From: Acidobacteriota bacterium
Lineage (GTDB): Bacteria > Acidobacteriota > Blastocatellia > Pyrinomonadales > Pyrinomonadaceae
Direction: 5' to 3'
Assembly (NCBI GenBank): GCA_016718135.1
Contig: JADKEF010000002.1
Location: 3,536-67,535 of the forward strand
Length of the DNA stretch: 64,000 nucleotides
Below the pieces are notes generated by a model. The model was not told the origin of the DNA. It did no database searches and was given only the letters and a program-made list of their open reading frames with translations. Shown piece after piece: positions 6,616 to 39,779 of this stretch (the first letter of the stretch is position 1; every line of letters begins with the position of its first letter). Position numbers and translations under genes: made by a program.

Positions 6616-6624
6616 GCGGGTGGT
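6597..6624. repeat. 28-nt repeat GGGAGAACCACCTGCGTAAGCGGGTGGT (hairpin), copy A
   Basis: Identical 28-mer recurs at 36669-36696. It forms the hairpin CCACCTGC-GTAA-GCGGGTGG, and the lpxD stop codon TAA lies in the loop. Confidence 0.85.
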
Positions 6625-6646
6625 TGAACTCACCAAACCAAAGATT

Positions 6647-7102: not shown

Positions 7103-7105
7103 AGT

Positions 7106-7139
7106 AAAAAGCCGATCGAACAAGATCGATCAGCTTTTT
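7106..7139. terminator. bidirectional hairpin terminator candidate between convergent msrB and amidohydrolase genes
   Basis: AAAAAGCCGATCG..GATCGATCAGCTTTTT imperfect stem flanked by A and T runs. Confidence 0.4.
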
Positions 7140-7170
7140 CACTTTTACCATTTTTTACTTTTGACCTTTG

Positions 7171-8547
7171 TCACTTCCGATCTTTGAAACTATCAAACAG
7201 ATCAGTGTGCCTGCTTGTCAGCGGAACCAGACGTCCGTTGATGAAAAGGTACTTGATGTTTGTTCGTGCGTCGAGCATATCGCCGTCGGCAACAACAACG
7301 TTTGCCATCTTGCCGACTTCGATAGAACCAAGACGGTCTGAAATGCCGAGGATCTGGGCAGGATATAGCGTGACCGATTTGAGAGCTTCTTCTTTACCGA
7401 GACCGTAGGCTCCGGCGATTCCGGCTTGGTACGGCAGATCGCGAACTTCGCCGCCACCTTCGCCGGTCGAGATCGCGAATTTGACTCCGGCTTTCTGCAT
7501 CAAGGAAGGAGCCTCGTAAAGGTAATCGTACGGATCGTCTTGCTGAACCGGAAGGCTGTAGATGTTTGTGTAGATGACTCCGATGTTGTTCGCTTTAAGA
7601 ACATCCGCCGCTTTCCACGCTTCCTGGCCGCCGACGATGACGCCTTTGACCTTCATTTCGGCAACGAACTTCGCGATCGCACGAATATCTCGTTCACGCT
7701 CCGAAGTAAAATGGATCGGCTTTAGACCGCGAACATACGGGATCATCGCCTCGTATCGGAGCGACGTTGTCGGCGTCGGCATACTCTTGTCCTTTGCATA
7801 GGCCTCGACCGATCTAGCATATGCCTCGACCTCGCGGAACAACTTTTTCAGATCATCAACGGCGGTGTCACGGCGACGAACGAGTTCGTTGAAATCAACG
7901 CCTCCACCACCGCCACCGCCGCCAAATCCGCCGCCACCACCAAATCCTCCGCCGCCTGTGACGCGGGGAAAATTGATGACGAGGCCATGAACAGCGACGA
8001 CAGCCATGTCAGCCTGAGTAGAGCCATTCAGGTTGATAACGGTGCTTTGGCCAGCAATGATGCCGCCAGTCGGCTCAGAGACGACTGTCGTGATGCCGTT
8101 AACGCGGGTCACATTCACATGCGACGAGTGGGGATTGACACCCGTGATCGCCTTGGCGTTGGCGTTCATGGTACCGACTTCCTGAACATCGACAGTCGCA
8201 TTTGCCCCCTGGCCGATCTCAACAAGGCCAAGATTGGTCGACGCGTCGATCATACCTGGAAAAACTGAAAGGCCTTTACCGTCAATACGCTCAGCACCCG
8301 ACGGTACAGCGGCACCCGCACCGACGGCGGTGATCTTGCCGTTCTGGATGACAACGGTTCCGTTCTCGATCACAGCCCCCGAAACTGTTACGATGCGGGC
8401 TCCGACGATCGCGAAAGTACCACCACGACCGGTCTTATTCTGCTGCGAGCCATCACTCTGAGCAACGATAGAAAGAACCGAAACCAACGTCGCTGCAATA
8501 GCGAGTACTAGCAATTTTGCATTTTGCATTTTCAATTTTGAAATCAT
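7171..8547 (-). CDS. secreted amidohydrolase-family protein with poly-Gly insert
   Basis: 458 aa with a signal peptide and an amidohydrolase fold pattern (GAR..T..G..I.NGTV.I..GKI..VG; C-terminal G.I..G..A..V). Contains the insert [19 protein letters not shown]. Its start overlaps the stop of the upstream gene (TAATG). Confidence 0.8.
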
Positions 8548-9944
8548 TATCGGTTACCTCCGTCGCGATCTGCGTCGTCGAGGTCACCGCGAAGACGTTC
8601 TGTCGGCACACGCGGCGGAGCACCGCCAGTTCCCGGTGCACGATTCATGTCGAGTTTCTCCAGCGTCTCGCGTTCTTTGGCGAGATCGGTTCGCATAGAT
8701 CTGTCTTTGGCACGGTCAAAGTAAACTTCACCCTCGATGATCGTCACATCGGCCGTAGCATAGACGCTGAATGGATGAGCTGACCAGATGACCAGATCAC
8801 CATCCTTGCCAACCTCTATCGACCCGGTGCGTTTCTCAATACCGAGTTGCATAGCCGGATTGATGGTTATCATCTTGAGAGCGTCCTGCTCGGGTACCCC
8901 GCCGTATTTCATCATCTTGGCGGCATCGATATTTAGACGTCTCATGCGTTCATTCGAGTCGGAGTTGATCGATACATTTACGCCGTTCTTCCAGAGAATA
9001 TAACCGGTATATGGGATGGAGTCATACGCCTCGAGCTTATAGCTCCAGCTATCGGCGAAGATCGATACGCCTGCACCGTGTTTCGCGATCTCAGGGGCGA
9101 TCTTGTACGCCTCAAGCCCGTGCTGAAGTGTACCGATCTTAAAACCAAATTCTTCGGCCATTCTGAGTAGATTCAGATGCTCGTCCGAACGGTAACCATG
9201 AGCATGAACTCGTCGCTTCCCTTCGAGAATCTCAACAAGAGGCTCAAGTTCCTCGTCCTTTCGAGGTTGGGTTCGCGTCTTCTTCGCCCGAAAATCATCC
9301 CAGGACTGTTTGTATTCACGAGCCCGAATAAAGGCATCGCGAATCACTTCCATCGTTCCCATACGGGTTCTAGGATAGCGAAACGTCTGCCCAGGCTGCG
9401 GTGAACGACTAGATTGTTTTACATTCTCGCCAAGAGCGAACTTGATACCCAGCGGAGCACCTTCAACCGGAAATTCCTCGACTGGTCGGCCATATTTGTA
9501 TTTCACCGTCGTACTCTGCCCACCGATCGGATTTGCCGAGCCGTGCAGCAAAAGCGACGCCGTAACACCACCAGCTAGGGCACGATAGATTGCCACGTCC
9601 TGCGGCAGAAGCATATCGCGAGTTCGCGTCATCGATGTGACAGCCAGCGAGCCTTCGTTAATTGCGCTTAGCATGGTGTGCGAGTGAGCATCGATGATGC
9701 CCGGCGTAACAAATTTACCGGTCGCGTCGATCGTTTTCACTCCGGCACCGGCTGTCAGGCCCTTGCCGATCCGCACGATCTTGCCGTTCTGGACGAGGAT
9801 GTCCGTTGCTTGCAACGTACCCGCCGTGGCCGTCATTACTGTCGCATTCTTAATGAGCAGGTCGCCTTTCGATTGTCCGAAGACGAGCGAAGGCGAGATC
9901 ACTAGAAGCGAAATGATAGTAAGAAAAACTGTCGTTCTTCGCAT
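8547..9944 (-). CDS. secreted amidohydrolase-family protein
   Basis: 465 aa with a signal peptide. Motifs GIIDAHSH (HxH metal site), HG and HA.G, and C-terminal GSIEVGKDGDLVIW. Confidence 0.85.
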   Translation of the reverse strand: MRRTTVFLTIISLLVISPSLVFGQSKGDLLIKNATVMTATAGTLQATDILVQNGKIVRIGKGLTAGAGVKTIDATGKFVTPGIIDAHSHTMLSAINEGSLAVTSMTRTRDMLLPQDVAIYRALAGGVTASLLLHGSANPIGGQSTTVKYKYGRPVEEFPVEGAPLGIKFALGENVKQSSRSPQPGQTFRYPRTRMGTMEVIRDAFIRAREYKQSWDDFRAKKTRTQPRKDEELEPLVEILEGKRRVHAHGYRSDEHLNLLRMAEEFGFKIGTLQHGLEAYKIAPEIAKHGAGVSIFADSWSYKLEAYDSIPYTGYILWKNGVNVSINSDSNERMRRLNIDAAKMMKYGGVPEQDALKMITINPAMQLGIEKRTGSIEVGKDGDLVIWSAHPFSVYATADVTIIEGEVYFDRAKDRSMRTDLAKERETLEKLDMNRAPGTGGAPPRVPTERLRGDLDDADRDGGNR

Positions 9945-9958
9945 AACTTTTTTATTTC

Positions 9959-11653
9959 TTAAGGATTCTTTGTTCCTGAGAATTGTACCGGCCCCTGCGG
10001 CGAATCTACCGTTCCGCTGACCTGATTTCCGCTGACGGTCGCCGTAACGCTAATGTCGATCGACGCCCCGCCGAACTGCACCGAGGTCGTGAAGCTGAAC
10101 CCATTTGCGGTTGCCCGGCCATTGGTGATCTGCGAACTTCCCAGCTGCGAAACCATCGTGCCGGTCATCGTTGTTCCAGCCTGCGCTAGGTTCAGAGTCG
10201 CCTGGATCGGCTGTCCGGGCACGTCGATCGTGATGGTGTACGTGCCGCCCATCGATGGGCCAGCAGGTGTTGGCGGGGTCGCTCCCGGGCCGCCGCCTTG
10301 TCCGCCGGGACCGCGTCCGCCGGCAGGCCGTACTGGTTCTTTCTGCTCGAAATGGCGTCCATCCACAAAGACATGAGAGGCAAACTTGTCGCGGCCAAAA
10401 AGGTCGCCTTTGATGACTACTAGGTTAGCGACCTTGCCAGCCTCGATCGATCCGAGAGTCTTATCAACCCCGAGGATTTCCGCCGCACCGAGCGTCATCG
10501 CCCGGATCGCCGCGTCGCGCGAGAGGCCGTTTTCGATGGCTTTACCGGCATTTGCGAAATAGTCTGTCATCGCCGTTGCTCCGCCGGATTGAAAGGCGAA
10601 TTTGACTCCTGCGGCCGAAAGCTTCGCAGCTCCCTTAGGCACCTCAGCCCTTGATCTAAGCACCGCGAGAGGTTCCGGATCCGCATCCGGTGACGAAGCC
10701 GTGAGACGTTTCGGGAAATTGAGCGAAAGCAGCACGGGTACGCTTTGTGCTTTCAAACGATCAGCGACTCTACCTGCTTCGAGGCCTCCCGCGATTATGC
10801 CGTTAAGGTTATATTCCTTCATGAAATCGAGAGCACGAATGATCTCGATCTCGCTGTTCGCGCTGAAAACGACGGGCATTTGTCGATTGAGAGCAGGGAA
10901 AAGTGCTTCGAGCGATTTGTCGGCACCTGGACGCTGCATTCCTTTTGGATCGGCAGCATACGCACGCTGATTTTCTTGCAAACGTCGAGCGTCGTTGAAG
11001 ATCTGCCGAAGAGCGGAAAACGTTCCGAGCAACGAACCCGGATAACCGCCTCCGCCGAGGGTTACGAAGGAAATGTGTTGAGCGAACGGCGATCTGATCA
11101 CAAGCGACGAAACTGAGTCGCCAGCAAGATTGATCACCGCTGATTGCCCGCTAAAGATGCCGGTTCGGCCGGTCGAAAGGGCGGACGTAAATCCCGCATT
11201 ACGGCTCGCCTCGAACTGTGCGTCGCCACCCCGGAGAACTTCTTCGATCATAAGCTCCGGCCGCAGGCCCGCCGGGTAATTTGAATTCGACGAAGGCTGT
11301 GCCGCCGCCGCTGCCGCCGCTGCTGCAGCCTGGCCACCGCCGCCTCCACCACCGGGGCCGCCGCCAGGTCCCGCTTGTGGTGCAACGATTCCAAGATTGG
11401 TCACCGTATCGATGAAGCCGGGATAGACAGTCGCCCCACCGGCATCAAGCACAGTAGCATCCGCCGGAGTTCTGATATTGGCCCCGACCGCGAAGATCAG
11501 CCCGTTCCGCACTATAACCGTACCTTTCTCAATGGTTGTTCCCGAGACGGTCACGATCTTTGCGTTCGTGATCGCGTAGCTCTGAGCATTCGCCGACGCA
11601 GAGATAGACAGGCAGATAGCCGCAACGAGCGGCAAAAATAGCTTTGATCTCAT
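9959..11653 (-). CDS. secreted amidohydrolase-family protein with Gly/Ala-rich inserts and an extra C-terminal beta domain
   Basis: About 564 aa from the ATG at 11653, with a signal peptide. Insert GPGGGPGGGGGGGQAAAAAAAAAAQ, linker GGRGPGGQGGGPGATPPTPAGP, then a domain of about 100 aa. Confidence 0.8.
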   Translation of the reverse strand: MRSKLFLPLVAAICLSISASANAQSYAITNAKIVTVSGTTIEKGTVIVRNGLIFAVGANIRTPADATVLDAGGATVYPGFIDTVTNLGIVAPQAGPGGGPGGGGGGGQAAAAAAAAAAQPSSNSNYPAGLRPELMIEEVLRGGDAQFEASRNAGFTSALSTGRTGIFSGQSAVINLAGDSVSSLVIRSPFAQHISFVTLGGGGYPGSLLGTFSALRQIFNDARRLQENQRAYAADPKGMQRPGADKSLEALFPALNRQMPVVFSANSEIEIIRALDFMKEYNLNGIIAGGLEAGRVADRLKAQSVPVLLSLNFPKRLTASSPDADPEPLAVLRSRAEVPKGAAKLSAAGVKFAFQSGGATAMTDYFANAGKAIENGLSRDAAIRAMTLGAAEILGVDKTLGSIEAGKVANLVVIKGDLFGRDKFASHVFVDGRHFEQKEPVRPAGGRGPGGQGGGPGATPPTPAGPSMGGTYTITIDVPGQPIQATLNLAQAGTTMTGTMVSQLGSSQITNGRATANGFSFTTSVQFGGASIDISVTATVSGNQVSGTVDSPQGPVQFSGTKNP

Positions 11654-11706
11654 ATCTTTTAGGTTCAAATTGAAACTGCTTTGAATTTGTTGATACGAAG
11701 AGGATA

Positions 11707-11745
11707 CAAAAAAAGTTTCGCGGGTGCAAAGGCCGCCGCGAAACT
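11707..11745 (-). terminator. rho-independent terminator downstream of ada
   Basis: 10-bp stem AGTTTCGCGG/CCGCGAAACT followed on the minus strand by a T7 run. Confidence 0.6.
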
Positions 11746-11796
11746 ATTGTTTTACTATTGGAGCCCGTATTTTAGGTGTTCTGAGCATCCATGACA

Positions 11797-12834
11797 CTAT
11801 GTCGCTTTCTCGTTCTGAAGCAACCGCCTTTTTCGCTCAACTCCCCAACGATAACCACTTAGCTTTCCGTCGCTCGCAACAACGCGGTGACACGGAATGA
11901 CAACCGCCACTCGATTTTTTGCACAAGCCTGCGCTACTGCGCGAACCTTTTTCTTATCACCGATCGCCTCCGCGACTTCTGTATAAGACCGCGTCTCGCC
12001 GTAGGGTATTTGCCGCAGAAAATCCCAGACCTGAAGCTGAAACGCCGTCGCTTGTAAGTCGAGCGGCAACACGAGACGGGTATTCTTACCTGCGAGATAT
12101 TTGTTGATCGCATCAACAGCATTTTTTAAGCCATCTGCGTCGTCAGCGATCTCTGCGTTTGGAAATTCCTTGTCGAGTGCCGTTCGCATGGCATCGACGT
12201 CATCGCCAAAAGTAACGCTACACACTCCGCGCTTTGTGCGAGCAACGAGTAGATTTCCAAGTTCGCAATCGGTGACTACATAATTTATTTTCATGCCCAT
12301 TCCGCCTTTCCTATAAATTGCCGGCGTCATTCCTAAATTCTCCGCCGCCTTTTCGTACAAGCGGCTACTCGAACCGTAACCTGATTCATACATCGCAGTT
12401 ACCACATCACTGCCACCCCGTAATTCGTCTTTAAATCTTTCCACTCTCTTCAACTCGGCATACTTTTTCGGGCTTACGCCCACAATCAGTTTGAATGTTC
12501 GCTGTAGGTACGACGCACTCAGTTTAAGTTGCTGACCTAGTTCGTCGAGCGATATCTCTGTGTCCCCAGCGATGATTTCGAGCGCCCGCATCACCAATTC
12601 GATCTGGGGATCAACTCGTTTGGACTGTTTCGGCTGGCATCGCAAACACGGACGGAAACCACTGTATTCCGCCCGTTCTATTCCATCAAAGAACTCGACG
12701 TTCTCACGCTTGGCAGGTTTCGACGAGCATGACGGGCGGCAGAAAATGCCGGTCGTTTTCACACCAAATACAAAGGCCCCGTCAAACCTAGCATCCTTCG
12801 CCTGTACTGCTCTCCAATACACTTCCGTTTCCAT
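11797..12834 (-). CDS. ada: bifunctional Ada: methylphosphotriester methyltransferase / AraC-type regulator / O6-methylguanine-DNA methyltransferase
   Basis: N-terminal Cys4 zinc site (FCRPSCSS...CLRC), a central AraC HTH, and the C-terminal PCHRV active site. Confidence 0.85.
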   Translation of the reverse strand: METEVYWRAVQAKDARFDGAFVFGVKTTGIFCRPSCSSKPAKRENVEFFDGIERAEYSGFRPCLRCQPKQSKRVDPQIELVMRALEIIAGDTEISLDELGQQLKLSASYLQRTFKLIVGVSPKKYAELKRVERFKDELRGGSDVVTAMYESGYGSSSRLYEKAAENLGMTPAIYRKGGMGMKINYVVTDCELGNLLVARTKRGVCSVTFGDDVDAMRTALDKEFPNAEIADDADGLKNAVDAINKYLAGKNTRLVLPLDLQATAFQLQVWDFLRQIPYGETRSYTEVAEAIGDKKKVRAVAQACAKNRVAVVIPCHRVVASDGKLSGYRWGVERKRRLLQNEKAT

Positions 12835-12896
12835 GTTTCTGAGTTTATTCGCTTACCCAACTGAAATCTATCCGCTTCTTGCTCTATAATTTTGAC

Positions 12897-13289
12897 ATGA
12901 GTTCGATCGTACTTTTTGACGGCGTCTGCAATTTTTGCAATGGTGCTGTCAATTTCATCATCAGCCACGATCCGGACAAGAAGTTCCGATTCGCACCGCT
13001 GCAATCGGAGATCGGGCTGGAGCTACAAGCGACGCATGGCCTTGGTGACGATATCGATTCAATAGTTTTGGTCAAAGATGGCAAGGCCTATACTCATTCA
13101 ACGGCGGGCCTGCGAGTCGCTCGAACGATGGGCGGAATATGGTCGCTCGCATACGTGTTTATAATCGTACCGGCACCGATACGAGATTTCTTTTACAGTA
13201 CGTTCGCTAAGAATCGTTATCGATTGTTCGGCCGCCAGGACGCCTGTATGCTGCCGACTCCGGACGTCCGCGAAAGATTCTTGACCTAA
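12897..13289 (+). CDS. thiol-disulfide oxidoreductase DCC family (DUF393)
   Basis: VLFDGVCNFCNGAVNFI motif near the N-terminus. Confidence 0.8.
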   Translation: MSSIVLFDGVCNFCNGAVNFIISHDPDKKFRFAPLQSEIGLELQATHGLGDDIDSIVLVKDGKAYTHSTAGLRVARTMGGIWSLAYVFIIVPAPIRDFFYSTFAKNRYRLFGRQDACMLPTPDVRERFLT

Positions 13290-13318
13290 CTTATTCAACT
13301 TACAAGGGGAACAAAAAA

Positions 13319-13597
13319 ATGAAAGCAACATGGAATGACGCCGTATTGGCGGAAAGCAATAACACGATAGTGGTCGAGGGGAATCAGTACTTCCCTGCCG
13401 ATTCGATAAATGGCTCGTATTTTAAGCCGTCAGAAACGCACACTGTCTGCGGGTGGAAGGGCACGGCGAGCTATTACGATGTGGTCGTAGATGGAGAAAC
13501 GAATAAAGACGCGGCTTGGTTTTACCCGGAAACAAAGCCGAATGCTAAAAACATTGAGGGTTATGTCGCGTTTTGGAAAGGCGTAGAGGTCAAGTGA
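13319..13597 (+). CDS. DUF427 domain protein
   Basis: 92 aa. N..LAES......EGN.YFP.........S...T.C.WKG.ASYY.V......N.D.AW.Y is the DUF427 pattern. Confidence 0.8.
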   Translation: MKATWNDAVLAESNNTIVVEGNQYFPADSINGSYFKPSETHTVCGWKGTASYYDVVVDGETNKDAAWFYPETKPNAKNIEGYVAFWKGVEVK

Positions 13598-13602
13598 TAG
13601 CC

Positions 13603-13797
13603 ATGGTCACTTGGGAACAAGGACTTTCGGGTGGAGTTGGGTTGGTTGTGATTATTTTCAACAAACAGATTGCAACCATGCTTTTGTGGTGGGAAGAAAA
13701 AATCATTAAATTAGCCGATCCAATAAATCCTTGGGTTTACCGCATAACGGCAATAGTCGTTGGAACGCTGTTTTTATCGATTGCTGTCTTGAAATGA
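13603..13797 (+). CDS. small two-TM membrane protein (hypothetical)
   Basis: 64 aa with two hydrophobic helices. Its stop overlaps the mutS2 start in an ATGA junction at 13794-13797. Confidence 0.45.
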   Translation: MVTWEQGLSGGVGLVVIIFNKQIATMLLWWEEKIIKLADPINPWVYRITAIVVGTLFLSIAVLK

Positions 13798-16241
13798 GCT
13801 TCTCGTTAGACATTCTTGAATACTCCAAGCTCCTCGAGCTTGTCAGCCGCCACGCCCAGACACCTATGGGTGTGGGGCGATTTGCCGATCTGCGTCCGAC
13901 CGAAAGTCGCATCAAACTTCATAACGCCCTTACCGCGATCTCGGAGACGATCTCGATCAACGAAGAAAAGCAGATCTCCTGGTCCTTCAGCGGCCTCGAA
14001 GATCCGTCCGACGCGGTCGCGATCCTCAAGATCCAAAACGCAGCTCTCGAACCGAATCTGATGCTTGAGATTGCTCGAGTTTGCACTCAAGCATTGTTCG
14101 CCCGCTCGTCCATCCAACCAGAAAAAGAGGCGGCTCCAACTCTCTGGCAGATCGTCGAACACATTCCGCCGACTCTGCTAGCAGTGATCGATCAGATAAA
14201 CAAAAAGCTCTTGCCCGGGGGCGAGATCGACGATTCGGCTTCGCCAGAACTCGCGAAATTACGTCGCGAGATCAACGCCCAAAAAGGAAGGCTCACGAAA
14301 TCGCTCGAATCTGCAATGCGTGCCGCGGGAAACGCCATCCAGGACGAGATCGTGACCGTGCGAAATGACCGCTTCGTGATTCCCGTAAAAACCGACTTTC
14401 GCGGCAAGGTCATCGGCGTCGCCCACGGCTTCTCATCCAGTGGTTCAACTGTCTTCGTCGAACCGCTCGAAGCCATCGAAGCCAACAACGAACTCCAAAA
14501 CCTAAAAGGCAAAGAAGAACGCGAGATCGCAAGGATTCTGTTTGCTTTGACCGAATCATTACGAGAACAGCTGCCGGCCGTCGAAGCGGCTGTGGATGCA
14601 GTAGCCGAACTCGATTTCATTAAAGCAAAAGTAGAATTCGCTCGTAAATTCAAAGCAGTAGTCCCCGAGATAGCAGACGACGAAACCCTCTACCTTACCG
14701 ACGCCCGCCACCCGCTTCTCGAAGAGAATTTGAAAGTATTAGCGGCTAGCCGCCAGCAGCTAGCCGCTAGCAATAGTTCGTCCGAGATCGTCCCGAGCAC
14801 GTTCGGACTGAGCCGTGAACACGCCATCATGATCATCTCCGGTGCGAACGCCGGTGGTAAAACAGTCGTGCTGAAAACCGCTGGTTTGCTAAGTCTAATG
14901 GCTATCTCCGGTCTTCCCGTTCCGGCGACTGCGGCGAGGATCCCGTTCTATCGCTCGATCTTGGCCGATATAGGAGACCATCAGTCCCTGAGTGCAAATC
15001 TCTCGACATTCTCCTCGCACATGTCGAACATCGCGGGTATGATCCGCGAATGTCAGCCGCCGTCGCTCGTCCTGCTCGACGAGGCCGGCACCGGAACGGA
15101 CCCCGAAGAAGGCTCGGCTCTGGGCGTTGCGATCGTCGATCATTTCCGCTCGAAAGGTGCCCAGGTGATCGCGTCCACACACTATCGCGGCCTAAAGATG
15201 TACGCCGCAAATGATGAGAGCATCATCAACGCCTCCGTCGAGTTCGACGATAAGACACTGCAACCAACCTACAAACTTCTCCTCGGCCTGGCCGGAGCAT
15301 CATCAGGCATCGAGATCGCCCGCCGTTTTGGGATCGAGCAATCGGTTATCGACTCGGCCCGGGAGAACCTAGATATTTCTGCGCAAGAAGCCGAAGACTA
15401 TCTCAAAAAGCTTCAAACCGAAACCAAGATCGCTACTGATCTTCGCATCGCCCTCGAAGAAGAACGCGAGGCGGTTGCCCTAAAATACGGCTCGCTCGAA
15501 GTAGAGGCGGTCAAGAAAGAAAAGGCCCGGAAGAAAGAATTCGAAAGCGAACTCGCAAACGCCATCGACGAATTCGACCGTCAATCAAAAGCCTTCCTCC
15601 AAACCCTCGAGGACAAAGCCCTAAAGAACAAGCTCGAAAAGGAACGGCAATCGCGAAAAGCCGAGCTCAACCGAGCGGTGATCGCGAAGGTGGCGGAAGC
15701 AGGAAGCCCGAGACGCCGCATGCCAGAACGGGGAGCGATACCGACCGGGTCGCCATTTACCACCGCACAAGGCGAAACCATCCTCGCCATCGGCAGCAAA
15801 GTCATCACATCCTTCGGCAATATCGGCACGATCGAACGACTGGATAAAGAAGTAGCCGAGGTGCTCGTCGGCGGAATGCGTCTCCGAGAAAAGATCGTCA
15901 ATCTCCAACTCGCCGAGCAACCGGTTGCAGAAGCTCGCACGACAGTAAGGGAATCCTCGACCAGCGGACTATCTCGGAATATTGACGGCTACGACATCCC
16001 GGCCGAACTGAACCTCATCGGCAAGACCACCGCCGACGCCGAATACGAGATCGACCGCTTCCTCGACGAAGCCTATATGTCGTCGCTTCCTCGGGTACGA
16101 ATCATCCATGGATTTGGAACAGGTGCTCTTAAGAACTACGTTCATCACTTCCTAAGAGGCCTTGCCCACGTAGCCAAATACGGTTTCGCCCCGTCGGACC
16201 AAGGCGGAAACGGGGCGACCATTGCTGAACTGAAGGGGTAG
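13794..16241 (+). CDS. mutS2: endonuclease MutS2 (MutS-like ATPase with C-terminal Smr domain)
   Basis: Walker A ISGANAGGKTVVLKT, a coiled-coil middle region, and a C-terminal Smr domain (LNLIGKT..A......FLD.A......VRIIHGFGTGALK). Confidence 0.9.
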   Translation: MSFSLDILEYSKLLELVSRHAQTPMGVGRFADLRPTESRIKLHNALTAISETISINEEKQISWSFSGLEDPSDAVAILKIQNAALEPNLMLEIARVCTQALFARSSIQPEKEAAPTLWQIVEHIPPTLLAVIDQINKKLLPGGEIDDSASPELAKLRREINAQKGRLTKSLESAMRAAGNAIQDEIVTVRNDRFVIPVKTDFRGKVIGVAHGFSSSGSTVFVEPLEAIEANNELQNLKGKEEREIARILFALTESLREQLPAVEAAVDAVAELDFIKAKVEFARKFKAVVPEIADDETLYLTDARHPLLEENLKVLAASRQQLAASNSSSEIVPSTFGLSREHAIMIISGANAGGKTVVLKTAGLLSLMAISGLPVPATAARIPFYRSILADIGDHQSLSANLSTFSSHMSNIAGMIRECQPPSLVLLDEAGTGTDPEEGSALGVAIVDHFRSKGAQVIASTHYRGLKMYAANDESIINASVEFDDKTLQPTYKLLLGLAGASSGIEIARRFGIEQSVIDSARENLDISAQEAEDYLKKLQTETKIATDLRIALEEEREAVALKYGSLEVEAVKKEKARKKEFESELANAIDEFDRQSKAFLQTLEDKALKNKLEKERQSRKAELNRAVIAKVAEAGSPRRRMPERGAIPTGSPFTTAQGETILAIGSKVITSFGNIGTIERLDKEVAEVLVGGMRLREKIVNLQLAEQPVAEARTTVRESSTSGLSRNIDGYDIPAELNLIGKTTADAEYEIDRFLDEAYMSSLPRVRIIHGFGTGALKNYVHHFLRGLAHVAKYGFAPSDQGGNGATIAELKG

Positions 16242-24366: not shown

Positions 24367-25399
24367 ATGAAACTTGGTAATTTCCCCGTTGTATTTTTTA
24401 CGGTAATTTTCGTCGCGATTGCCTCAGTAGCTCAAACGGGTTTCAAATCGCCGCAGCAACATATTGCGGCAATCGAAGCGGGCGAACGCGAGATCGCCGC
24501 GGATCCGTGGAATCAGAGAGCCTATACAAACCACCGCCTAGCGCTTTATGACCTCGAGAAGGAACGCAGGGCTGGACGGACCGGCCTGCCCGCGATCCAA
24601 CCGTTTCTCGACAGGGTGTCGAAGGGTCATCCCAACAATATCTGCGTCGACTGGAGCATCAAATCCCTTCGTCCCTGGAAGAACCTCAAGGAATACGCGG
24701 ATGCGGTCGAACTTTCGCTCCGTTCACATACCGATCGGCGCGGCGATACCTGCGCCGCCGATCTTGCAAAGGACGCCGGGATCATGCTGTCAAAGGACGG
24801 TCAGTACAAACGAGCCGAGGAATTCTTCGTAAAGCAAAAGGCTGTCGCTCCAAAGGACCCGTTCGTTGACGGTTACATACGCGAGGCAAAAGAAAAGGCC
24901 CACACAAAGATGATGCAGGACGTCGTGAAGATCGGAGCCGCCGAGGGCAGCAAAGAACCTAAGCTCGTTATCCTGCCCGACGGCGGTATCTACGTGGGCC
25001 AGGTGAATGCGGCGGACCGTCCTCATGGCAAAGGGCGGTATCAAGGCCAAAACGGCAACATCTACGAGGGATCATTCTTTGACGGTCAGATGACGGGCTA
25101 CGGCGTGTACAAATATACGAACGGCCGGAAGTATGAGGGCGAGTTTTACAAGACCAATTTCCACGGCAAGGGGCCGCTACGACGCGATGGAATGGGTCTA
25201 CACCGGCGACTTCAACCTCACTAAAATGACTGGCAAAGGCAAACTGGTTTATGTGAGCGGGCCCAATAAAGGCGAAGAGTACGAAGGCGATTTCCTCGAT
25301 GGACAGATCCACGGCGAGGGCACGTACCGCCAGAAAGACGGCCAGGTCGTCTGGGGCACCTTCGAGAAAGGCCGTTTGGTGAAATCGGCAAAGTGGTGA
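24367..25399 (+). pseudogene. secreted MORN-repeat protein, reading frame broken by one apparent 1-nt indel
   Basis: ORFs 24367..25224 and 25133..25399 join as ..YEGEFYKTNFHGKG|RYDAMEWVYTGDF.. (YxGxxxxGxxxGxG MORN units). The frame changes at ggcaaggggccgctac, about 25170-25176. Confidence 0.7.
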
Positions 25400-25409
25400 A
25401 GCTTCGCAT

Positions 25410-26672
25410 CTATAACGATCCCAAGGACCGGATCCGTGACCGATCCAGAGAACCGCCTTTTACGAGCAGTTCAACCTCTTCCCTAGCCCAGGGCGAATAC
25501 CCATTCGCTGGATCGGCGACCTCGACCACGAACTGCTCCCAGTCAACCCATTTCACATCATTGACCTCTGCCGGATTTGGACGCGGCAAAGCGGACGCAA
25601 ACCCCACAAACACCGGACAGATCTCATTCTCAACCACGCCGTCTTTTTCGGCTCGGTAGCGGAAATCGGGGAGGATGAGGTGGAGTTTTTCTACTCGCAT
25701 TCCGAGTTCGTATTTGAGGCGGCGGCGGGCGGCGGATTCGGTGGATTCGTGGAGCATGACGTGGCCGCAGCACGAGTTTGACCAGACGCCGGGCCAGGTT
25801 TTCTTGGTGAGGGCTCGCTGCTGTAGCAGCAATTCGCCTTTGTCGTTGAAGAGGAAGATAGAGAACGCGAGATGGCGCTTGGTGTCTCCGTCATGAGCGG
25901 CGAGCTTGCGGCTCGTTCCGGTCGGCACGCCCGATTCGTCGCAATAAACGATCATGTCGTCAAAGGCGTAGTGATACTTGCTGTAAAACGCCGCAAGCAA
26001 AGCGATCACAACGATACCAATCGCTAGAGGCCAGTACATCCCTGAGAAAAACGCGATGAACGTCCAGAACGCGACAATAAAAAACGTGCTTGAGATCATT
26101 TGCGCCGGGGCGGGCAGCAAAGGTTTTTTGATCAGAGTAAAGGTCTCAAGCACGACGCCGGCAATGGCCCCCGAAAACAGCCAGCCGACAAAATTCGAAA
26201 CCGGAACGCCATAAAAAACTCCGCCGCCCTCGTACCGCCAAAACCCGATCTTCACCGCTCCGGGGTCTAGAACGAGATCGAAGACAACAAGCAGCACTGC
26301 CGTCAACACGATCCGAAGAATGCTGGCTACTAGCTGATAGCTAACAGCTAACGGCTTTGCTTCGAACAACCGCCGGGCGATCGCATAGGCCGCTAAAACT
26401 AAAGGAGTCCAAGCCAGAAAAACCGTCCACGGCGTCAACCCAAACAACCGAAAACCGAGCAGACCAGAATACCCAAAATGCCCGTACGGAAAACCTGTGA
26501 TGATAGCGCTCGTCTCGATCACCAAAGCCAAAACACCCAACGCTCCCCACAGCAGAAAAGCGTCACGCCAACCAAGCCACCATCGCGTCGCCCAAAATGT
26601 CGGTGCCGCAAACAGGATGACGTTGATGCCGGACACCCAGGCAAGCGAGGGCGGAATGACGACATTCGCCAT
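25410..26672 (-). CDS. fusion of CruF-type carotenoid biosynthesis membrane protein (DUF422/Caroten_synth) with type-1 isopentenyl-diphosphate isomerase (Nudix)
   Basis: The N-terminal roughly 240 aa are polytopic with ITGFPYGHFGY and LDPGAVKIGFWRYE. The C-terminal roughly 175 aa carry LAFSIFLFN..GELLLQQRA..K..WPGVWSNSCCGH and E.E.CPVF (Idi). The ATG at 26670-26672 is preferred. Confidence 0.75.
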   Translation of the reverse strand: MANVVIPPSLAWVSGINVILFAAPTFWATRWWLGWRDAFLLWGALGVLALVIETSAIITGFPYGHFGYSGLLGFRLFGLTPWTVFLAWTPLVLAAYAIARRLFEAKPLAVSYQLVASILRIVLTAVLLVVFDLVLDPGAVKIGFWRYEGGGVFYGVPVSNFVGWLFSGAIAGVVLETFTLIKKPLLPAPAQMISSTFFIVAFWTFIAFFSGMYWPLAIGIVVIALLAAFYSKYHYAFDDMIVYCDESGVPTGTSRKLAAHDGDTKRHLAFSIFLFNDKGELLLQQRALTKKTWPGVWSNSCCGHVMLHESTESAARRRLKYELGMRVEKLHLILPDFRYRAEKDGVVENEICPVFVGFASALPRPNPAEVNDVKWVDWEQFVVEVADPANGYSPWAREEVELLVKGGSLDRSRIRSLGSL

Positions 26673-26676
26673 TTCG

Positions 26677-26818
26677 CCGGGAACGCAGCCGCCCTCGGCT
26701 GCAAACGCCGGTTCCTCCGGCGTGGAGGTACTATCAATTCTCACGTTGAAGCGTTCACCACGCGCACCAGCGTCCCGAAGCGGAACGCTTTTGCAGTCGA
26801 GGGCGGCTGCGTTCCCGG
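26677..26818. repeat. 142-nt element with 21-bp perfect inverted termini, in the divergent promoter
   Basis: CCGGGAACGCAGCCGCCCTCG at 26677-26697 and its exact reverse complement at 26798-26818. The arms extend to 29 bp if one G:T pair is allowed. Confidence 0.85.
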
Positions 26819-26843
26819 CCGTAGGTTCGCTATACTCTCCTCG

Positions 26844-27686
26844 ATGCATTTCCTCCTCAAAGTCAGCCGCCCGCGATTTTGGTTCTATATTTTCGGGCCG
26901 TATCTTGTCGGCCTGGTCGCGGCGGCCGAGACGCGAGGAGACTTGCTCGATTGGCGGTTCGCTCTGTTTGGGCTCTATTTTCTGCTGCCGGCAAACCTTC
27001 TGATCTACGGCGTCAACGATATTTTCGACTATGAGACAGACAAGCTAAACGAGAAGAAGAACGCTTACGAAACTCTCGTCGTCCCCGATCGTCGAAAGTC
27101 GTTGACGATTGCAATACTCACAACGAATATACCGTTCATAATCGCCTCGATCATTTTCGCTTCCGCAGCTTTACCTTCGCTCGTGGGCTTTCTGTTTTTT
27201 TCTATCTTCTACTCCGCACAACCCATTAGAGCGAAGACAAAGCCCTTTCTCGATTCAGCATTCAACATCTTGTACGTCTTTCCCGGAGCGTTCGCCTATC
27301 AGATGGTTTCCAGCACTTTCCCACCAATCGGTCTAATGATAGCCGCCGGATGCTGGACTGCGGCGATGCATGCGTATTCGGCGATCCCGGATATTGAGGC
27401 GGACAAGGCTGCCGGATTGAAGACCATTGCTACCGTCCTCGGCCCGTATGGAACGCTTGCCGCTTGTGCCATTCTCTACGCCGCGTCCGCGATTCTCTCG
27501 GCCGAACACCTCGGCATCGCAAGCTTCACGCTCGGCGGGGCATATATACTGTTGATGCTCGCCTCGGTGGCTTCGTATCGATCCGGCCGTCTTTTCAAAC
27601 TCTACCGTGCTTTTCCGCTCATCAACATCGCCGCCGGTTTCGTGATTTTCTGGAACGTAGCATTGTCAAAACTGCTCCCTTTGTAA
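26844..27686 (+). CDS. UbiA-family prenyltransferase, lycopene-elongase-like
   Basis: 280 aa, polytopic, with RPRFW, the NDIFDYETD aspartate-rich motif and a second D-rich region. TATACT lies 7 nt upstream of the ATG, so the mRNA may be leaderless. Confidence 0.75.
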   Translation: MHFLLKVSRPRFWFYIFGPYLVGLVAAAETRGDLLDWRFALFGLYFLLPANLLIYGVNDIFDYETDKLNEKKNAYETLVVPDRRKSLTIAILTTNIPFIIASIIFASAALPSLVGFLFFSIFYSAQPIRAKTKPFLDSAFNILYVFPGAFAYQMVSSTFPPIGLMIAAGCWTAAMHAYSAIPDIEADKAAGLKTIATVLGPYGTLAACAILYAASAILSAEHLGIASFTLGGAYILLMLASVASYRSGRLFKLYRAFPLINIAAGFVIFWNVALSKLLPL

Positions 27687-27691
27687 ACTCC

Positions 27692-29198
27692 TTACAATGA
27701 GGTCATCGGCTCTGCGGACGTAATCCCATGCACACGTTTGTAAGCGAGTTCCGCGCTGATCAGACATATCTGCGTCCCGATGCCCGGATTCGTTCCCGCA
27801 CCGACATAAAACAGATTCTCGACCTTCTTCGACTTATTCTTAGGCCGAAATATCGCGGTCTGCCTTAGCGTATGAGCGAGACCGAGTGCAGAGCCTTTGA
27901 ACGCATTGTAGTCAATTCCAAAATCCGCGACCGTGTAAATACGTTTATATTCGATCTTTTCGCGAAGACCCGGCAGGTTCATTTCCGTTTCCATCAACGC
28001 CAAAACGCGATCGGCATACGCGTCCTTCTCAGCATCGGAGATCTCCAGTCCCGAAGCGATCGGCACCAGAACAAACAAATTCTCCTTCCCCTCCGGAGCA
28101 ACCGACGGATCGGTCACGCTCGGGGCACAGACATATAGCGACGGCTCGTCGGGCAGACGCGGGTCTTTGTATATGTCATCAAAATTCTTTCGCCAGTCTT
28201 CACTGAACAACAGATTGTGATGTATCAACGAAGGCAGCTTTTCGCTGACGCCGAGATACATGATGAACGCCGACGGGGCCATCGTGCGTTTTTGCCAGTA
28301 CTTCTCTTTGTGCGTTTGCTGTGGAATGTCGAGCAGCTGCGTCTCGGTGAACCACATATCGGCGTTCGAGATGACAAGATCTGCGTCGATCACTTCGCCG
28401 CCTTCGAGTCGCACTCCAACCGCCTTTCCGTCGCGAACGATGATCTTCTCGACCGGTGAATTGGTCCGTAAAACCGCTCCATTCTTCTCCGCGATGTTCG
28501 ACAAAGCCCTGATCAGCTCGTAAAAACCGCCCTGCGGATAAAACACTCCCTGGTTAAAGTCCATGTGCGACATCAGGTTGTACAGCGCCGGGGCTTCGTA
28601 GGGCGAGGTGCCGAGGAAGACCATAGTGTATTCCATCACCTGCTGCAGCTTTTTCGACGTGAAGAACTTCGACACAAACTTATGCATCGTCGAGAAAACC
28701 GAAAGCTTTTGCCCCTCGGTCATCACGCGTTTGTTGAAAAAATCGAAGATCGTATCGTAATTCTTAAACATGAAGTGCTGCGTCGCGACTTCATATTGAT
28801 ATTCGGATTGTTTCAAATAAGCCCGCAGCTTATCACCCGCTCCCGGCTCGATCGCGTCGAAGGTTGCGGTGTCGATGTCGATATTTGAGTTGATATCCAG
28901 CGGATCGCCGTTGTTGCGAAAAAAGATGCGATACGAAGGGCCGAGTTTACGAGGTCAAGATGATCCTCGACCTTTTCGCCTACGAGATTAAAGTAATGCT
29001 CGAAGATGTCCGGTGCCAGATACCACGACGGCCCCATGTCGAACTTAAATCCGTCATGCTCCAGAAAATGTTCGCGCGGCCGCCGAGGTTCGCGTTTTTT
29101 TCCACGACGGTCACATCGTAACCCTTCCGCGCAAAAAGACCGGCGGCCCCGAGACCGCCGATTCCAGCTCCGATAATTACGAGTTTCTTACCTACCAT
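27692..29198 (-). pseudogene. crtI: phytoene desaturase family (CrtI/CrtD), frame broken by two apparent 1-nt indels
   Basis: Three ORF pieces join colinearly: MVGKKLVIIGAGIGGLGAAG..VVEKN..LGGRA | ..HDGFKFDMGPSWY..EDHLDLV | ..LGPSYRIFF...FMFKNY...C-terminus. Shifts at about 29065-29075 and about 28944-28950. The start overlaps the crtB stop (TAATG). Confidence 0.8.
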
Positions 29199-30079
29199 TA
29201 TTCGTACACACCAACCAACGCCTTCGCTGAAAGCCACATCTTCTGCTTAAAGTTCGTTCGAACGCGGCCCTTATAAACATTATAGTTTGCTCGCTCCACT
29301 TCGGCTAAGATCGCCTTGTAAAGAACGTAGGCGATGCGGACTGCGAGGCGGCCTCGCAAGGAAAGCATTGGAATGCCGATTAGAGCTTCACGGTAGATCT
29401 GGCGGTTTCGTTCTATTTGAAATTTCATGAACCGCACAAACCGCTCGTCGTGAACGCGATCCGAAATATCATCAGACGATAAACCAAACCGCCGCAATTC
29501 CTCCTGCGGCATATAAACGCGGCCTAGTTCTTCGTAGTCCTCGCGAATGTCACGCAGGAAATTGGTCAACTGAAACGCATAACCGAGCTGCACCGCGTGT
29601 TTGAACGCCGCATCGCTCGAATATCCGACGATCCTCGTGACCATCAGCCCGATCACTCCGGCCGAGCCGTACATGTATTCTTCAAGCTCGGCGTAGGTCT
29701 GGTACGAGAATTTCTCCTCGTCCATGAACATCGACTTCAGAAAAGCCTCGCCGTCCTCGACCGGGATCGAGAATTTGTGGAAGGTATGAACTATCGCGTT
29801 CATCACCGCATCGTCGCTGCCGCCCGCATTCATTGCGTTGAGCCAGTTTTGCCGCCACTCGTCGAGTTTCGCAAGAGTATCCTCCGTCGTACCTTTCGCC
29901 GGATCATCAACTATCTCGTCCGGAATACGTGCAAAAGCATAAATACAATAGATCGCGTAGCGAACCTCCCGCGGAAAGAACTGCGTTGCGAAGTAATAAC
30001 TCGTGCCGTAACGATTCGTGATCGCTTTACACTGAGCCACGCCTTCTGCGAGAAATTGCCTGTCCTGCCAGTCAGCCAT
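29198..30079 (-). CDS. crtB: phytoene synthase
   Basis: 293 aa with SYYFAT.FFP, YAFAR..DEIVDD, LTNFLRDI.ED...GRVY.P. Confidence 0.9.
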   Translation of the reverse strand: MADWQDRQFLAEGVAQCKAITNRYGTSYYFATQFFPREVRYAIYCIYAFARIPDEIVDDPAKGTTEDTLAKLDEWRQNWLNAMNAGGSDDAVMNAIVHTFHKFSIPVEDGEAFLKSMFMDEEKFSYQTYAELEEYMYGSAGVIGLMVTRIVGYSSDAAFKHAVQLGYAFQLTNFLRDIREDYEELGRVYMPQEELRRFGLSSDDISDRVHDERFVRFMKFQIERNRQIYREALIGIPMLSLRGRLAVRIAYVLYKAILAEVERANYNVYKGRVRTNFKQKMWLSAKALVGVYE

Positions 30080-30248: not shown

Positions 30249-30779
30249 ATGCCCGAGACCATCTCAAGCAAACACATCTACAAAGGCAGTATTTTCGACA
30301 TTCGCGTGGACACCGTTCGCGAGGGTGAGCTCGAGTACGAACGCGATATCATCGCCCATCCGGGCAGCGGCGTGATCGTGCCCGTCTACGAAGACGGCAC
30401 CGTTGCTCTAGTTCGCCAGTACCGTCACGCTGCTGGAAAATCTTTGCTTGAGATCCCCGCCGGTTCGCTCGACGAAGGCGAATCGCCCGAAACAGGTGCC
30501 CGGCGCGAGCTCGAAGAAGAGATCGGCGTGACCGCAGAAAATTTCGAACAGATCGCCGCATTCTACGTCTCGCCGGGATTTCTGACTGAGAAAATGTTTG
30601 TATTCCTCGCATCCGGGCTTAAGGAAACGAGCCAATCGCTCGATGATGATGAGATCGTTGAGATCGAACGCATAAGTTTCGAGCGGGCGTTTGAAATGAT
30701 CCGAAGTGGGGAGATCGAGGACGCGAAGACTATTGTTGGGCTGACGATTGCTGGTGCACGATATGGCCATGGGCTTTAA
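30249..30779 (+). CDS. ADP-ribose pyrophosphatase-type Nudix hydrolase
   Basis: Nudix box GSLDEGESPETGARRELEEEIGV. The N-terminal beta domain is typical of NudF. Confidence 0.8.
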   Translation: MPETISSKHIYKGSIFDIRVDTVREGELEYERDIIAHPGSGVIVPVYEDGTVALVRQYRHAAGKSLLEIPAGSLDEGESPETGARRELEEEIGVTAENFEQIAAFYVSPGFLTEKMFVFLASGLKETSQSLDDDEIVEIERISFERAFEMIRSGEIEDAKTIVGLTIAGARYGHGL

Positions 30780-37093: not shown

Positions 37094-39779
37094 TTGAACC
37101 AGCCGTTATCCAAACTTATGAGATCAGCCTCTCGCTTCTTCGTCACCGTGTTTCTCGTCGCGATGCTCTTGTCGAACGCATTACCGTGCGGGCCGGGCTA
37201 CGTCTCGCCGTTGTTTGATACGACTTCCGCTCCGGAAAATCCGTACACAGACTTTGCGGCGGGGGATTGGGATCGTTAAGCCAAGTTTCATCGCTCGGTG
37301 CTCTACGCGGCTTATCGGCATATCGCAGGAAACGGGATGAACACGCCGGAACAGCAGGCGATCGTCAGTATTTGGAAGGCCGAGATCGACAATAAAGATT
37401 TTCCTGACGACACCGTAGATGAAGCAGTAAAACTGTGGGTGGCTCAACGAAAAAAGGTTGAGATGAAGGAGGAAAAGCCGCCCGAGATCTATACCGAACG
37501 ATCCTACGGAGGTTACGATTTCTTTCCGAATTGTACTAAAAATGCGTTTGAGACCGCGGCTGAGACGCTGTCAGATCGGGTGAGCTCGCACGGGCCAAGT
37601 GATGCAGGTGTCATCAATTGGGTCACGGCTCAGGACCAGGTCTTTGAGAACTGTGCGAGCGGCAAACGAACGCCGGACGAAGCGAATCCCGGTTCGCCGC
37701 AATGGCTGCAGAAAGATCGTGCTTATCAACGGGCTGCAGCCGAGTTCTATTCACTCGATTTTGAATCCGCCAAAAAGCACTTTGCCGAGATCGCTCAGGA
37801 TACCGAATCGCCATGGGCCGAGACAGCCGATTATCTCGTAGCTCGTACGCTTATTCGACAGGCGAGCCTTTCGAAAGATGCAGCGAAGTCCGGTGCATTC
37901 TACGACGAAGCTGACGCACGTCTCGCAAAATTCGTCTCACGCTCGGGCAAATTTACAGCCTCCGCCGAACGGCTCGCCGGCCTCATCGCCTATCGCCGCC
38001 GTCCAAAAGAGCGCGTCAGCGAACTCGCCAAAAAGCTCGCATTTCCGGCCAATGAGAATTTCCGCCAGGATCTGATCGACTACACGTGGCTACTCGACAA
38101 GTTCGAGACCGAAGTACTCGCCAACGAGGAAAAACGCAAGGAAGCCGAGCGGACCAAGAACGATCCGGTCGTTAACGCGACAGCAAACACTGAAGTCGAG
38201 CCCGAGACCAGGGCAGCGAACAAGCCGACCAAGAAGAACGAGGACGATCTCGAACTTTCGATCTACTTTGACTCAGGCTCGATAACGGTCTTCGTCCCTG
38301 TTGATGCCGACGACAATGTCGCTATCGCCGCCGCCGAGAAGGCCGTTGGCAAGGCGTTAACCAAAGAGCAGAAAGATCAGGTTCGCAGCCTCCGGCAGAC
38401 TGCTTACTCTAGTCGTTTTACGGAGCAAAAGAGCGGCTACGAAGGCGGTTATTATGGCGATGAAACTCTGACACCATCTCTCTTGCCTGCATTTTTGAAA
38501 CAAGACGACTTAACTGATTGGCTTTACACCTATCAGATGCCCGGTTCGGCAGCGTATCTCTATTCATTTGAACGATTTAAGGCGACGGCGTCGGATCTGT
38601 GGCTAATGACCGCCCTGTCAAAGGCGGACAAAAGCTCCTCCGAACTTCCCCGCCTTCTTGAGGCTGCGGATCGTGCCAGCCGCTCGGCTCCCGGCTATAC
38701 GACGATCGCGTATCACACGGCTCGCATCCTGATCGAAACTGGCAAAAACGCCGAGGCTCGTAAGCTCATCGACGAAATGCTCGCGCAGGGCGACCGTTTG
38801 CCGATCTCCGCACAGAATTCCTTCATGACGCTGCGGCTCAAGCTTGCGGCGACCCTGGAAGATTTTCTGAAAGACTCGCTGCAGCGGCCCTATGCATTCG
38901 ATTACTCAGGCGATGTAAGCACTGTCGATGAGATCATCGCCGAGCAAAAGACATACTACGACCCCGGAATACAACAAGGAAGGCCGCGAGGCTTTTGACC
39001 GCGAGGTCGAGGAGCGATTTACCACGCAGAAGCTCTGGCAGGATCGGCTGATGTTCGATTCCGCGATCATTGAAGTATTCAATCAGTATTTCCCGACGCA
39101 GCAATTGATCGAGGTCGCCAAGTCACCCGCTTTGCCCGAGTACCATCGCGAACGCTTCATCGTTGCCATCTGGACACGAGCCTTTCTTCTCGACGATCTA
39201 GCAACAGTTCTTCGTATGACGCCCGAGCTGATCAAATACCATCCCGAGATGGCAACGCAGCTCGAGCCGCTGATGACGGCGAAAACGCTGCCCGCTCAAG
39301 ATCGTGCATTGCTCTACTTTATTTTGAAGAACCCGCTTTTTAGTCCGTACATTGAGGACGGAATGGGCAAGACGGACAATGTGCAGGAGCAGTTCGATTC
39401 GAACGACTGGTGGTGCGAGCCTTACGATGAGGAGTATAGCGACCTAGAGAATGCGTCTATTCCGCGCAAACTTCCGCAGCGGCCGGCGTTCCTGACGGCT
39501 GCCCAGAGCAAATTGGCTCAATCCGAGCGAAAGCGTTTGCGAGAGTCGGGCGACGCACCGAAATTTCTTACCGCAAAAGTCCTCGACTGGGCTAAAAAAG
39601 CACCTGCCGACCGGCGTGTTCCCGAGGCTCTTTACATCATGATAGAAGCAAATGGCTGGACGAAATACGGCTGCGGAAACAACGAAGACCTTCGCAATGA
39701 ACTCGTCGCGTTGCTCAAGAAACGCTACGCGACGAGCGAATGGGCCGCTAAACTGGCGGAGCAAGAGAAAGATCAGTAG
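37094..39779 (+). pseudogene. large secreted hypothetical protein (about 895 codons), interrupted by an in-frame TAA and one apparent 1-nt indel
   Basis: The signal-peptide ORF 37094..37279 is in the same frame as ORF 37298..38998, separated by the TAA at 37277-37279. ORFs 37298..38998 and 38928..39779 join as ..EQKTYYDP|EYNKEGREAF.. at a C4 run, about 38961-38965. Confidence 0.6.

Follow-up and report, generated by a model that had tools for sequence, protein, structure and literature searches.

The stretch of DNA considered here, termed the window, is 64,000 nts of contig JADKEF010000002.1 (positions 3,536 to 67,535; assembly GCA_016718135.1) from an Acidobacteriota bacterium of the family Pyrinomonadaceae. 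Between its positions 25410 and 30079 it carries a four-gene module that probably directs the synthesis of an acyclic, elongated and hydroxylated C45/C50 carotenoid of the bacterioruberin type, the product being predicted from the genes. The four encode a phytoene synthase (CrtB), a desaturase of the CrtI/CrtD type, a UbiA-family prenyltransferase of the type of the lycopene elongase LyeJ and, as a single protein, a CruF-type membrane domain fused to a type-1 isopentenyl diphosphate (IPP) isomerase, Idi. All three of the tailoring genes (those for UbiA, the desaturase and CruF) score best on haloarchaeal bacterioruberin models. The possession of one desaturase and no cyclase by the source genome, which is 3.9 Mb and 96% complete, fits an acyclic bacterioruberin-like route and excludes a cyclic C50 route of the decaprenoxanthin type. 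The CruF::Idi fusion appears to be undescribed.

The first-pass annotation, an earlier reading of the sequence alone, had called the prenyltransferase elongase-like, pointing to the carotenoid elongases LyeJ and CrtEb. Profile scores and phylogeny both bear this out, placing it in the LyeJ/CrtEb family and not with other UbiA enzymes. With the NCBIfam model NF009516 the protein reaches 264 bits (cut-off 205), as against 137 bits with NF010119 and 131 bits with NF009608, the cut-off for which is 217. What two of these models represent is evident from the scores of reference prenyltransferases, which were located by tblastn searches of plasmid records. The protein encoded within a carotenoid gene cluster of Halocatena gives 426 bits with NF009516 and 109 with NF009608, and its in-cluster counterpart from Halarchaeum 397 and 103 bits, while for Arthrobacter CrtEb the order is reversed, with 133 and 470 bits. 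NF009516 is thus the LyeJ-type model and NF009608 the CrtEb type. With the prenyltransferase of the crtI-lyeJ-cruF cluster in Halocatena, the window protein shares 45.5% identity. Its motif NDIFDYETD, reported earlier, is confirmed, and a second one, PDIEAD, is also there; the residues of these Asp-rich motifs, N58, D59, D62, D66, D183 and D187, do not vary among 67 members of the family. In a maximum-likelihood tree of 84 UbiA sequences, made with a quick search, the Pyrinomonadaceae proteins form one clade within a LyeJ/CrtEb family that is split from the other UbiA enzymes with 95% support in the Shimodaira-Hasegawa-like approximate likelihood ratio test (SH-aLRT). Some of the homologues have been named 'lycopene elongase/hydratase (dihydrobisanhydrobacterioruberin-forming)' by the automatic annotation of IMG. 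Two metagenomic sequences, P0163 (630 aa) and P0229 (625 aa), combine a phytoene synthase (PF00494) in one chain with a UbiA domain of the LyeJ family; they are 46% and 43% identical, respectively, to the window protein. These CrtB::UbiA fusions are an independent, second kind of Rosetta-stone link of the UbiA family to carotenoid synthesis.

The distribution of the genes points in the same direction. Among 401 Acidobacteriota genomes, those with a match to NF009516 above its cut-off are precisely the 13 that have the full-length CruF::Idi fusion, neither being present in the 388 others, and all 13 carriers belong to one genus, that of the window, from which 14 genomes were sampled. The only genome of the genus with neither (G181) also lacks crtI, so that the cluster is gained or lost as a unit. 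Where present, the cluster has a constant layout, shared by all 12 loci from the genus and by nearly all of 80 loci from metagenome-assembled genomes (MAGs), these being the best 80 of a contig scan with a diverse UbiA alignment; those best 80 came from MAGs of Pyrinomonadaceae and 'Chloracidobacterium sp.' only, and a profile search with that alignment was likewise filled by close relatives. The ubiA gene stands between cruF::idi and crtI in all 12 of the same-genus loci and in about 70 of the MAG loci, and a crtB orthologue adjoins crtI in 12 of the 12. A cyclase of the CrtY/CrtL/CruA type was not found in the source genome. Neither was a cyclase domain of the CrtYcd/CrtYef type found there with TIGR03462, a model that does match the Corynebacterium glutamicum control. 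The cyclic C50 pathway of CrtEb and CrtYeYf was accordingly rejected, on the shortfall of UbiA with NF009608 and the lack of any TIGR03462 match in the genome.

It had been recognized at the outset that the CruF::Idi fusion might be an artefact of a missed stop codon or an indel between two genes. This is rejected, as a search of 5.8 billion proteins yields the same domain architecture (PF04240 followed by PF00293) in over 120 protein clusters, with identities of 60–86%, and it recurs in the 13 genomes of the genus and in most of the 80 MAG loci. The fusion is therefore genuine, as had been claimed. Those of its database matches that have a name are mostly from Pyrinomonadaceae MAGs, and are labelled just 'isopentenyl-diphosphate Delta-isomerase'. 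Within the window protein, PF04240 spans aa 20–225 (144 bits, cut-off 25) and the type-1 isomerase model NF002995 spans aa 238–402 (218 bits, cut-off 127), with TIGR02150 giving a further 144 bits on the Idi domain (cut-off 105.8). The best NCBIfam model of the CruF domain is TIGR03460, that of the archaeal bacterioruberin CruF. The junction is conserved and nearly free of linker, its consensus being YHYAFDDMIVY.

An AlphaFold2 model of the fusion has two domains and high confidence (mean per-residue confidence, pLDDT, 89.7; predicted template modelling score, pTM, 0.85). Seven membrane helices are modelled, at residues 8–33, 35–59, 83–104, 113–141, 158–181, 190–209 and 213–233, and the first strand of the Idi domain begins about 6 residues past the last of them. 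The C-terminus would be cytoplasmic, and a crude count of hydropathy and charge fits this orientation. The Idi half superimposes on E. coli Idi (1HX3/1X83) with a TM-score of 0.87, a root-mean-square deviation of 2.2 Å and 44% identity. In 55 fusion proteins H260, H267, C302, H304, Y339, E348 and E350 are invariant. They align to H25, H32, C67, H69, Y104, E114 and E116 of the E. coli enzyme, which we take to be its metal-binding and catalytic residues. By profile scores above cut-off, by its Nudix-like Idi fold and by all seven of these residues, the C-terminal half belongs with Idi. A fold search of the PDB with the model matched the Idi/Nudix half only, and no solved structure resembling the CruF half was found. 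A search of the genome for another Idi, of type 2 or of type 1, found none, so that the candidate of a second isomerase elsewhere in the genome is rejected. As a separate observation, at locus L028 (G276:C1:326000-343000) of another Acidobacteriota genome an Idi domain 52% identical to that of the window ends a 680-aa frame (8141-10183, minus strand), the N-terminal part of which resembles a large multi-pass membrane protein. This could be another membrane-protein::Idi fusion, or a long high-GC frame with an internal start.

The gene calls rest on a listing of open reading frames and on Pfam and NCBIfam profile scans of the window proteins, and the features are collected in Table 1. The genes are closely packed. 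The stop codon of crtB overlaps the start codon of crtI (TAATG), the convergent pair ubiA and crtI is separated by 5 nts, and the divergent pair cruF::idi and ubiA by 171 nts.

Table 1. Features of the carotenoid locus (window positions; strand in brackets)
Feature	Position	Strand	Profile match or remark
crtB, phytoene synthase, 293 aa	29198..30079	(-)	PF00494 237 bits
crtI, CrtI/CrtD-type (CrtID-like) carotenoid desaturase	27692..29198	(-)	three frames in present assembly
LyeJ-type UbiA prenyltransferase, 280 aa, predicted lycopene elongase/1,2-hydratase	26844..27686	(+)	PF01040 78 bits, NF009516
Inverted-repeat element, 142 nt	26677..26818	(.)	fills most of the cruF::idi / ubiA intergenic region
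CruF::Idi fusion, 420 aa, single open frame, ATG at 26672	25410..26672	(-)	
CruF domain of fusion, aa 1-237, predicted carotenoid hydratase	25962..26672	(-)	PF04240 144 bits
Type-1 isopentenyl-diphosphate isomerase (Idi) domain of fusion, aa 238-420	25410..25961	(-)	NF002995

Other features of the locus may be noted. The 142-nt inverted repeat has a 48-nt arm that is repeated at about 10 further sites in the genome, and in the relative G328 (LNEI01000012) a 79%-identical copy separates crtB from crtI. By its appearance the element belongs to a small, dispersed repeat family of the repetitive extragenic palindrome (REP) or miniature inverted-repeat transposable element (MITE) kind, and is probably outside the pathway. 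Immediately upstream of crtB, but on the other strand, is a gene for a NUDIX hydrolase of 176 aa (30249-30779, plus strand). It is syntenic in G328, has rplM/rpsI as neighbours, and adds a second gene of the Nudix fold next to the carotenoid cluster, though probably one of unrelated housekeeping function. Rates of change differ greatly among the genes of the cluster, the identity of the window proteins to those of G328 being 96% for CrtI, 84% for the fusion, 79% for CrtB and 65% for UbiA. At the DNA level it is 86% for crtI and 66% for ubiA.

The desaturase deserves separate consideration. Its best NCBIfam model is NF058655, CrtID ('bifunctional phytoene desaturase/3,4-desaturase'), with 437 bits for a 374-aa piece from the window, while the orthologue in G328, which is intact, reaches 613.9 bits (for reference, the Halocatena desaturase gives 749 bits and the CrtI of an Arthrobacter C50 cluster 453). 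No second crtI-family gene was found in the genome, the search matching the cluster crtI only, and a further desaturase elsewhere is thus rejected. Possession of a single such gene matches the situation in Haloarcula japonica, where C0507 serves as both CrtI and CrtD (PMC11946383).

While all four carotenoid genes are present where the first-pass annotation had put them, crtI is not one open frame. Its coding runs from frame 0 to frame 2 and then to frame 1 on three-frame translation. Nucleotide alignment with 7 orthologues locates 2 extra nts after 'cattttc' (about 29062-29063) and the lack of 1 nt in 'gt-aaactc' (between 28949 and 28948). If these frameshifts were real, the sole desaturase would be lost, the pathway would be dead and no coloured carotenoid would be made. 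The assembly as given, with its three reading frames and no other crtI-family gene to compensate, does read this way, and the disappearance of the whole cluster from G181 of the same genus shows that loss does occur. Such decay is nevertheless unlikely here. Apart from the two indels, CrtI is free of stops and retains its very high protein identity to the G328 orthologue. The gene is single-frame in 91 of the 92 relative loci compared, namely in 12 of the 12 from the same genus and, L104 excepted, in the 80 MAG loci so far as they extend to crtI. Furthermore, the window has at least two more frame breaks in a stretch of about 18 kb: a MORN-repeat gene (24367-25399) switches frame after about 25195, and the gene for a large secreted protein (37118-39776) does so near 38965, in contrast to an intact 887-aa orthologue in G328, a genome that has no frame breaks where the window is intact. 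The rate of frame breaks in the window fits indel errors, and with the genome 96% complete an assembly error in crtI is favoured. The breaks are most likely such errors and not gene decay.

Several observations weigh against a C45/C50 product. Some of them suit a different outcome, in which only acyclic C40 hydroxy-carotenoids would be made, CruF would be a C-1,2 lycopene hydratase, in the way that bacterial CruF acts on psi-ends, UbiA would have another prenyl-transfer role or none in carotenoid synthesis, and Idi would do no more than raise general isoprenoid supply. A prenyltransferase paralogue of Haloferax larsenii scores 223 bits with NF009516 (127 with NF009608), and neither it nor a paralogue in Halomontanus rarus has carotenoid genes in its context; the NF009516 cut-off, which a non-carotenoid protein can pass, is consequently no proof of function. 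The backbone of the UbiA tree is unresolved, 44 of its 81 forks being open, and the Pyrinomonadaceae clade does not come out specifically as the sister of haloarchaeal LyeJ. Equivalog cut-offs are narrowly missed by two of the three tailoring proteins. The intact CrtI orthologue has 613.9 bits against the 640 of NF058655, and the CruF domain 125 bits against the 154.7 of TIGR03460. With NF041333 the CruF domain has 99 bits against 300, and no CruF equivalog model is matched above its cut-off. Its identity to haloarchaeal CruF is 33–41%, and to the CruF of a C40 cluster 35%. Deinococcus radiodurans matches NF009516 in the control of the profile search, and a putative homologue of crtEb is present in Deinococcus, although the pigments identified there are only C40 ones of the deinoxanthin type (PMC6950390). 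The carriers of the cluster that were retrieved are MAGs throughout, with no cultured strain among them.

The sister genus represented by G271, in the same family, also has to be taken into account. Its carotenoid cluster (L027; G271:C14:4001-24000, about 6100-14800) is a different one, without UbiA. There the gene order is idi, crtB, crtI, then genes for an alpha/beta-hydrolase, a polyprenyl (GGPP, geranylgeranyl diphosphate) synthase-like protein and a glycosyltransferase of family GT2, followed by a second desaturase gene and an unfused cruF. The pathway so encoded is probably one to C40 carotenoid glycosides, and idi clusters, unfused, with its C40-type crt genes. However, restriction of the window module to C40 products is quite unlikely. 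It has against it the strict retention of ubiA between cruF::idi and crtI in the same-genus and MAG loci, the exact coincidence of UbiA and fusion in their presence pattern, the existence of CrtB::UbiA fusions in the same family, and a score on the LyeJ-type model that is twice that on any other. In addition, the proteins of the genus are nearer to those of Halocatena than to those of G271. Identity of CrtI is 44% to Halocatena vs 32/29% to G271, and of CrtB 35% vs 30%, which suggests that the whole module arose separately from the other carotenoid clusters of the family.

Returning to the favoured C45/C50 product, LyeJ is known as a lycopene elongase/1,2-hydratase and CruF as a C50 2'',3''-hydratase (PMC11946383). 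Every one of the enzymatic steps, the product and any channelling of dimethylallyl diphosphate (DMAPP) are ones that we infer only from the sequence. CrtB would join two GGPP to give phytoene. The single desaturase, like the haloarchaeal C0507, would convert phytoene to lycopene and later introduce the 3,4 double bonds. The LyeJ-type UbiA would add a C5 unit from DMAPP onto C-2 (and C-2') and hydrate C-1, and the CruF domain would hydrate the added C5 side chains. Positioned about 6 residues from the cytoplasmic end of the last CruF helix, the Idi domain would convert IPP to DMAPP at the membrane surface, and the extra DMAPP used in elongation would be supplied by this fused isomerase.

A C50 carotenoid requires 4 DMAPP and 6 IPP, and a C40 carotenoid 2 DMAPP and 6 IPP, as follows arithmetically from the standard pathway. 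The methylerythritol phosphate (MEP) pathway yields, through its enzyme IspH, mostly IPP. IspH is found in the genome, from which the presence of the MEP pathway is deduced. Given the demand of C50 synthesis for DMAPP and a supply that is mostly IPP, a dedicated membrane-tethered Idi makes metabolic sense.

Whether the fusion signifies anything beyond the joint expression of its two halves is less clear-cut. It could well be a chance joining of neighbours, giving co-expression with no metabolite channelling, a possibility to which we attach appreciable weight though rather less than an even chance. The G271 cluster, in which idi is a separate gene among crt genes of C40 type, shows that the association of idi with crt genes predates the fusion, and the fusion could simply reflect that adjacency. 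Also, fusion is not obligatory within the clade: at L103 (311-1066) there is an unfused CruF of 251 aa with no Idi directly after it, and at L069 (5088-5675) a standalone Idi of 195 aa. Mere co-expression does not readily account for maintenance of the fusion over a divergence of 53–86% in sequence and in more than 120 clusters, for the conserved junction, for the confident rigid model or for the finding of the fusion solely where a DMAPP-consuming elongase is present. The first-pass annotation had taken the fusion as a Rosetta-stone pointer to exactly the chemistry of C5 addition. In its strict form this is weakened, as idi is already linked to crt genes in G271. What can be set beside it is the L069 arrangement, a rare variant in the clade, where the standalone Idi is beside ubiA without cruF; this links Idi with the elongase and not with CruF itself.

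More tentatively, and here we would rate the chances as distinctly against, the fusion may mark a membrane-bound C50 'metabolon' in which DMAPP is made at the cytoplasmic face of CruF and handed directly to the neighbouring LyeJ-type elongase. This wider proposal would have the abundant, uncultured Pyrinomonadaceae genus as a major unrecognised source of bacterioruberin-type C50 carotenoids that is non-halophilic and Gram-negative, and its module as taken up in one piece, with no relation to the C40 clusters found in sister genera.

The closest parallel is with the haloarchaeal bacterioruberin cluster, which in Haloarcula japonica is crtI/crtD(c0507)-lyeJ(c0506)-cruF(c0505); Halocatena salina and Halarchaeum sp. 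CBA1220 have canonical crtI-prenyltransferase-cruF(-crtB) clusters. The three enzyme families and crtB are common to the window and the haloarchaea, no cyclase is needed, and one desaturase can cover the jobs of CrtI and CrtD in the haloarchaea, as it would in the window. The differences are that the host is bacterial (Acidobacteriota, Pyrinomonadaceae), that identity is just 33–45%, and that the window genes are not one co-directional operon, ubiA being convergent with crtI and divergent from cruF. Moreover, the two haloarchaeal CruF proteins examined, of 280–282 aa, are without an Idi domain, whereas that of the window has a type-1 Idi at its C-terminus.

Actinobacterial C50 clusters, such as the crtE-B-I-Ye-Yf-Eb cluster of Arthrobacter sp. 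StoSoilB13 (decaprenoxanthin type), share with the window the proximity of a gene for a UbiA-family elongase to crtB and crtI in a bacterium. They differ in that their elongase is of the CrtEb type (470 bits on NF009608 vs 131 for the window protein) and in the presence of cyclase domains of the CrtYe/Yf type, of which the window genome has none; the StoSoilB13 locus has no CruF::Idi fusion. A bacterioruberin cluster of Arthrobacter agilis/bussei is known from the literature. Bacterioruberin-type genes (lyeJ/crtD/cruF) have also been deduced from metagenomes in Candidatus Patescibacteria of Lake Baikal (PMC9948471), which like the present case involves uncultured non-halophilic bacteria. In that instance, however, the phylum is another one, the genes are often unlinked and no Idi fusion was reported. 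With the bacterial CruF C-1',2' hydratases (Deinococcus, cyanobacteria) and clusters of the G271 type, PF04240 is held in common, as is an association of idi with crt genes. These C40 systems have a cyclase and/or a glycosyltransferase and two desaturases, are without a LyeJ-type UbiA and, unlike the window, have CruF and Idi as separate proteins.

The first-pass annotation had also suggested that neither this fusion nor C50 pigments are established for the lineage. Full-text literature searches agree, having yielded no paper on bacterioruberin or C50 carotenoids in Blastocatellia or Pyrinomonadaceae and none describing a CruF-Idi fusion. In the searchable literature, C50 carotenoids are from haloarchaea and some Actinobacteria, with the genes inferred in Patescibacteria. 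For non-halophiles, bacterioruberin is reported to be linked to membrane adaptation (PMC9122864). Annotation is an issue as well, NCBI's names being no more than 'isopentenyl-diphosphate Delta-isomerase' for the fusion and 'prenyltransferase' for the elongase.

What the window appears to hold is a new version of the known bacterioruberin pathway, in an uncultured genus of Pyrinomonadaceae from soils, wastewater and cold freshwater, with the pigment itself being a prediction. As a natural Rosetta stone, the fusion connects DMAPP supply with carotenoid elongation, and two propositions become directly testable through it: that C50 synthesis is limited by precursor balance, expressed as the DMAPP:IPP ratio, and that there is joint action of CruF, LyeJ and Idi at the membrane. 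If the prediction is correct, crtB, a bifunctional desaturase, an elongase and a hydratase-isomerase would constitute a compact four-gene route from GGPP to a bacterioruberin-like antioxidant, one that would be useful for heterologous production, and a widespread genus of Acidobacteria would join the producers of C50 carotenoids.

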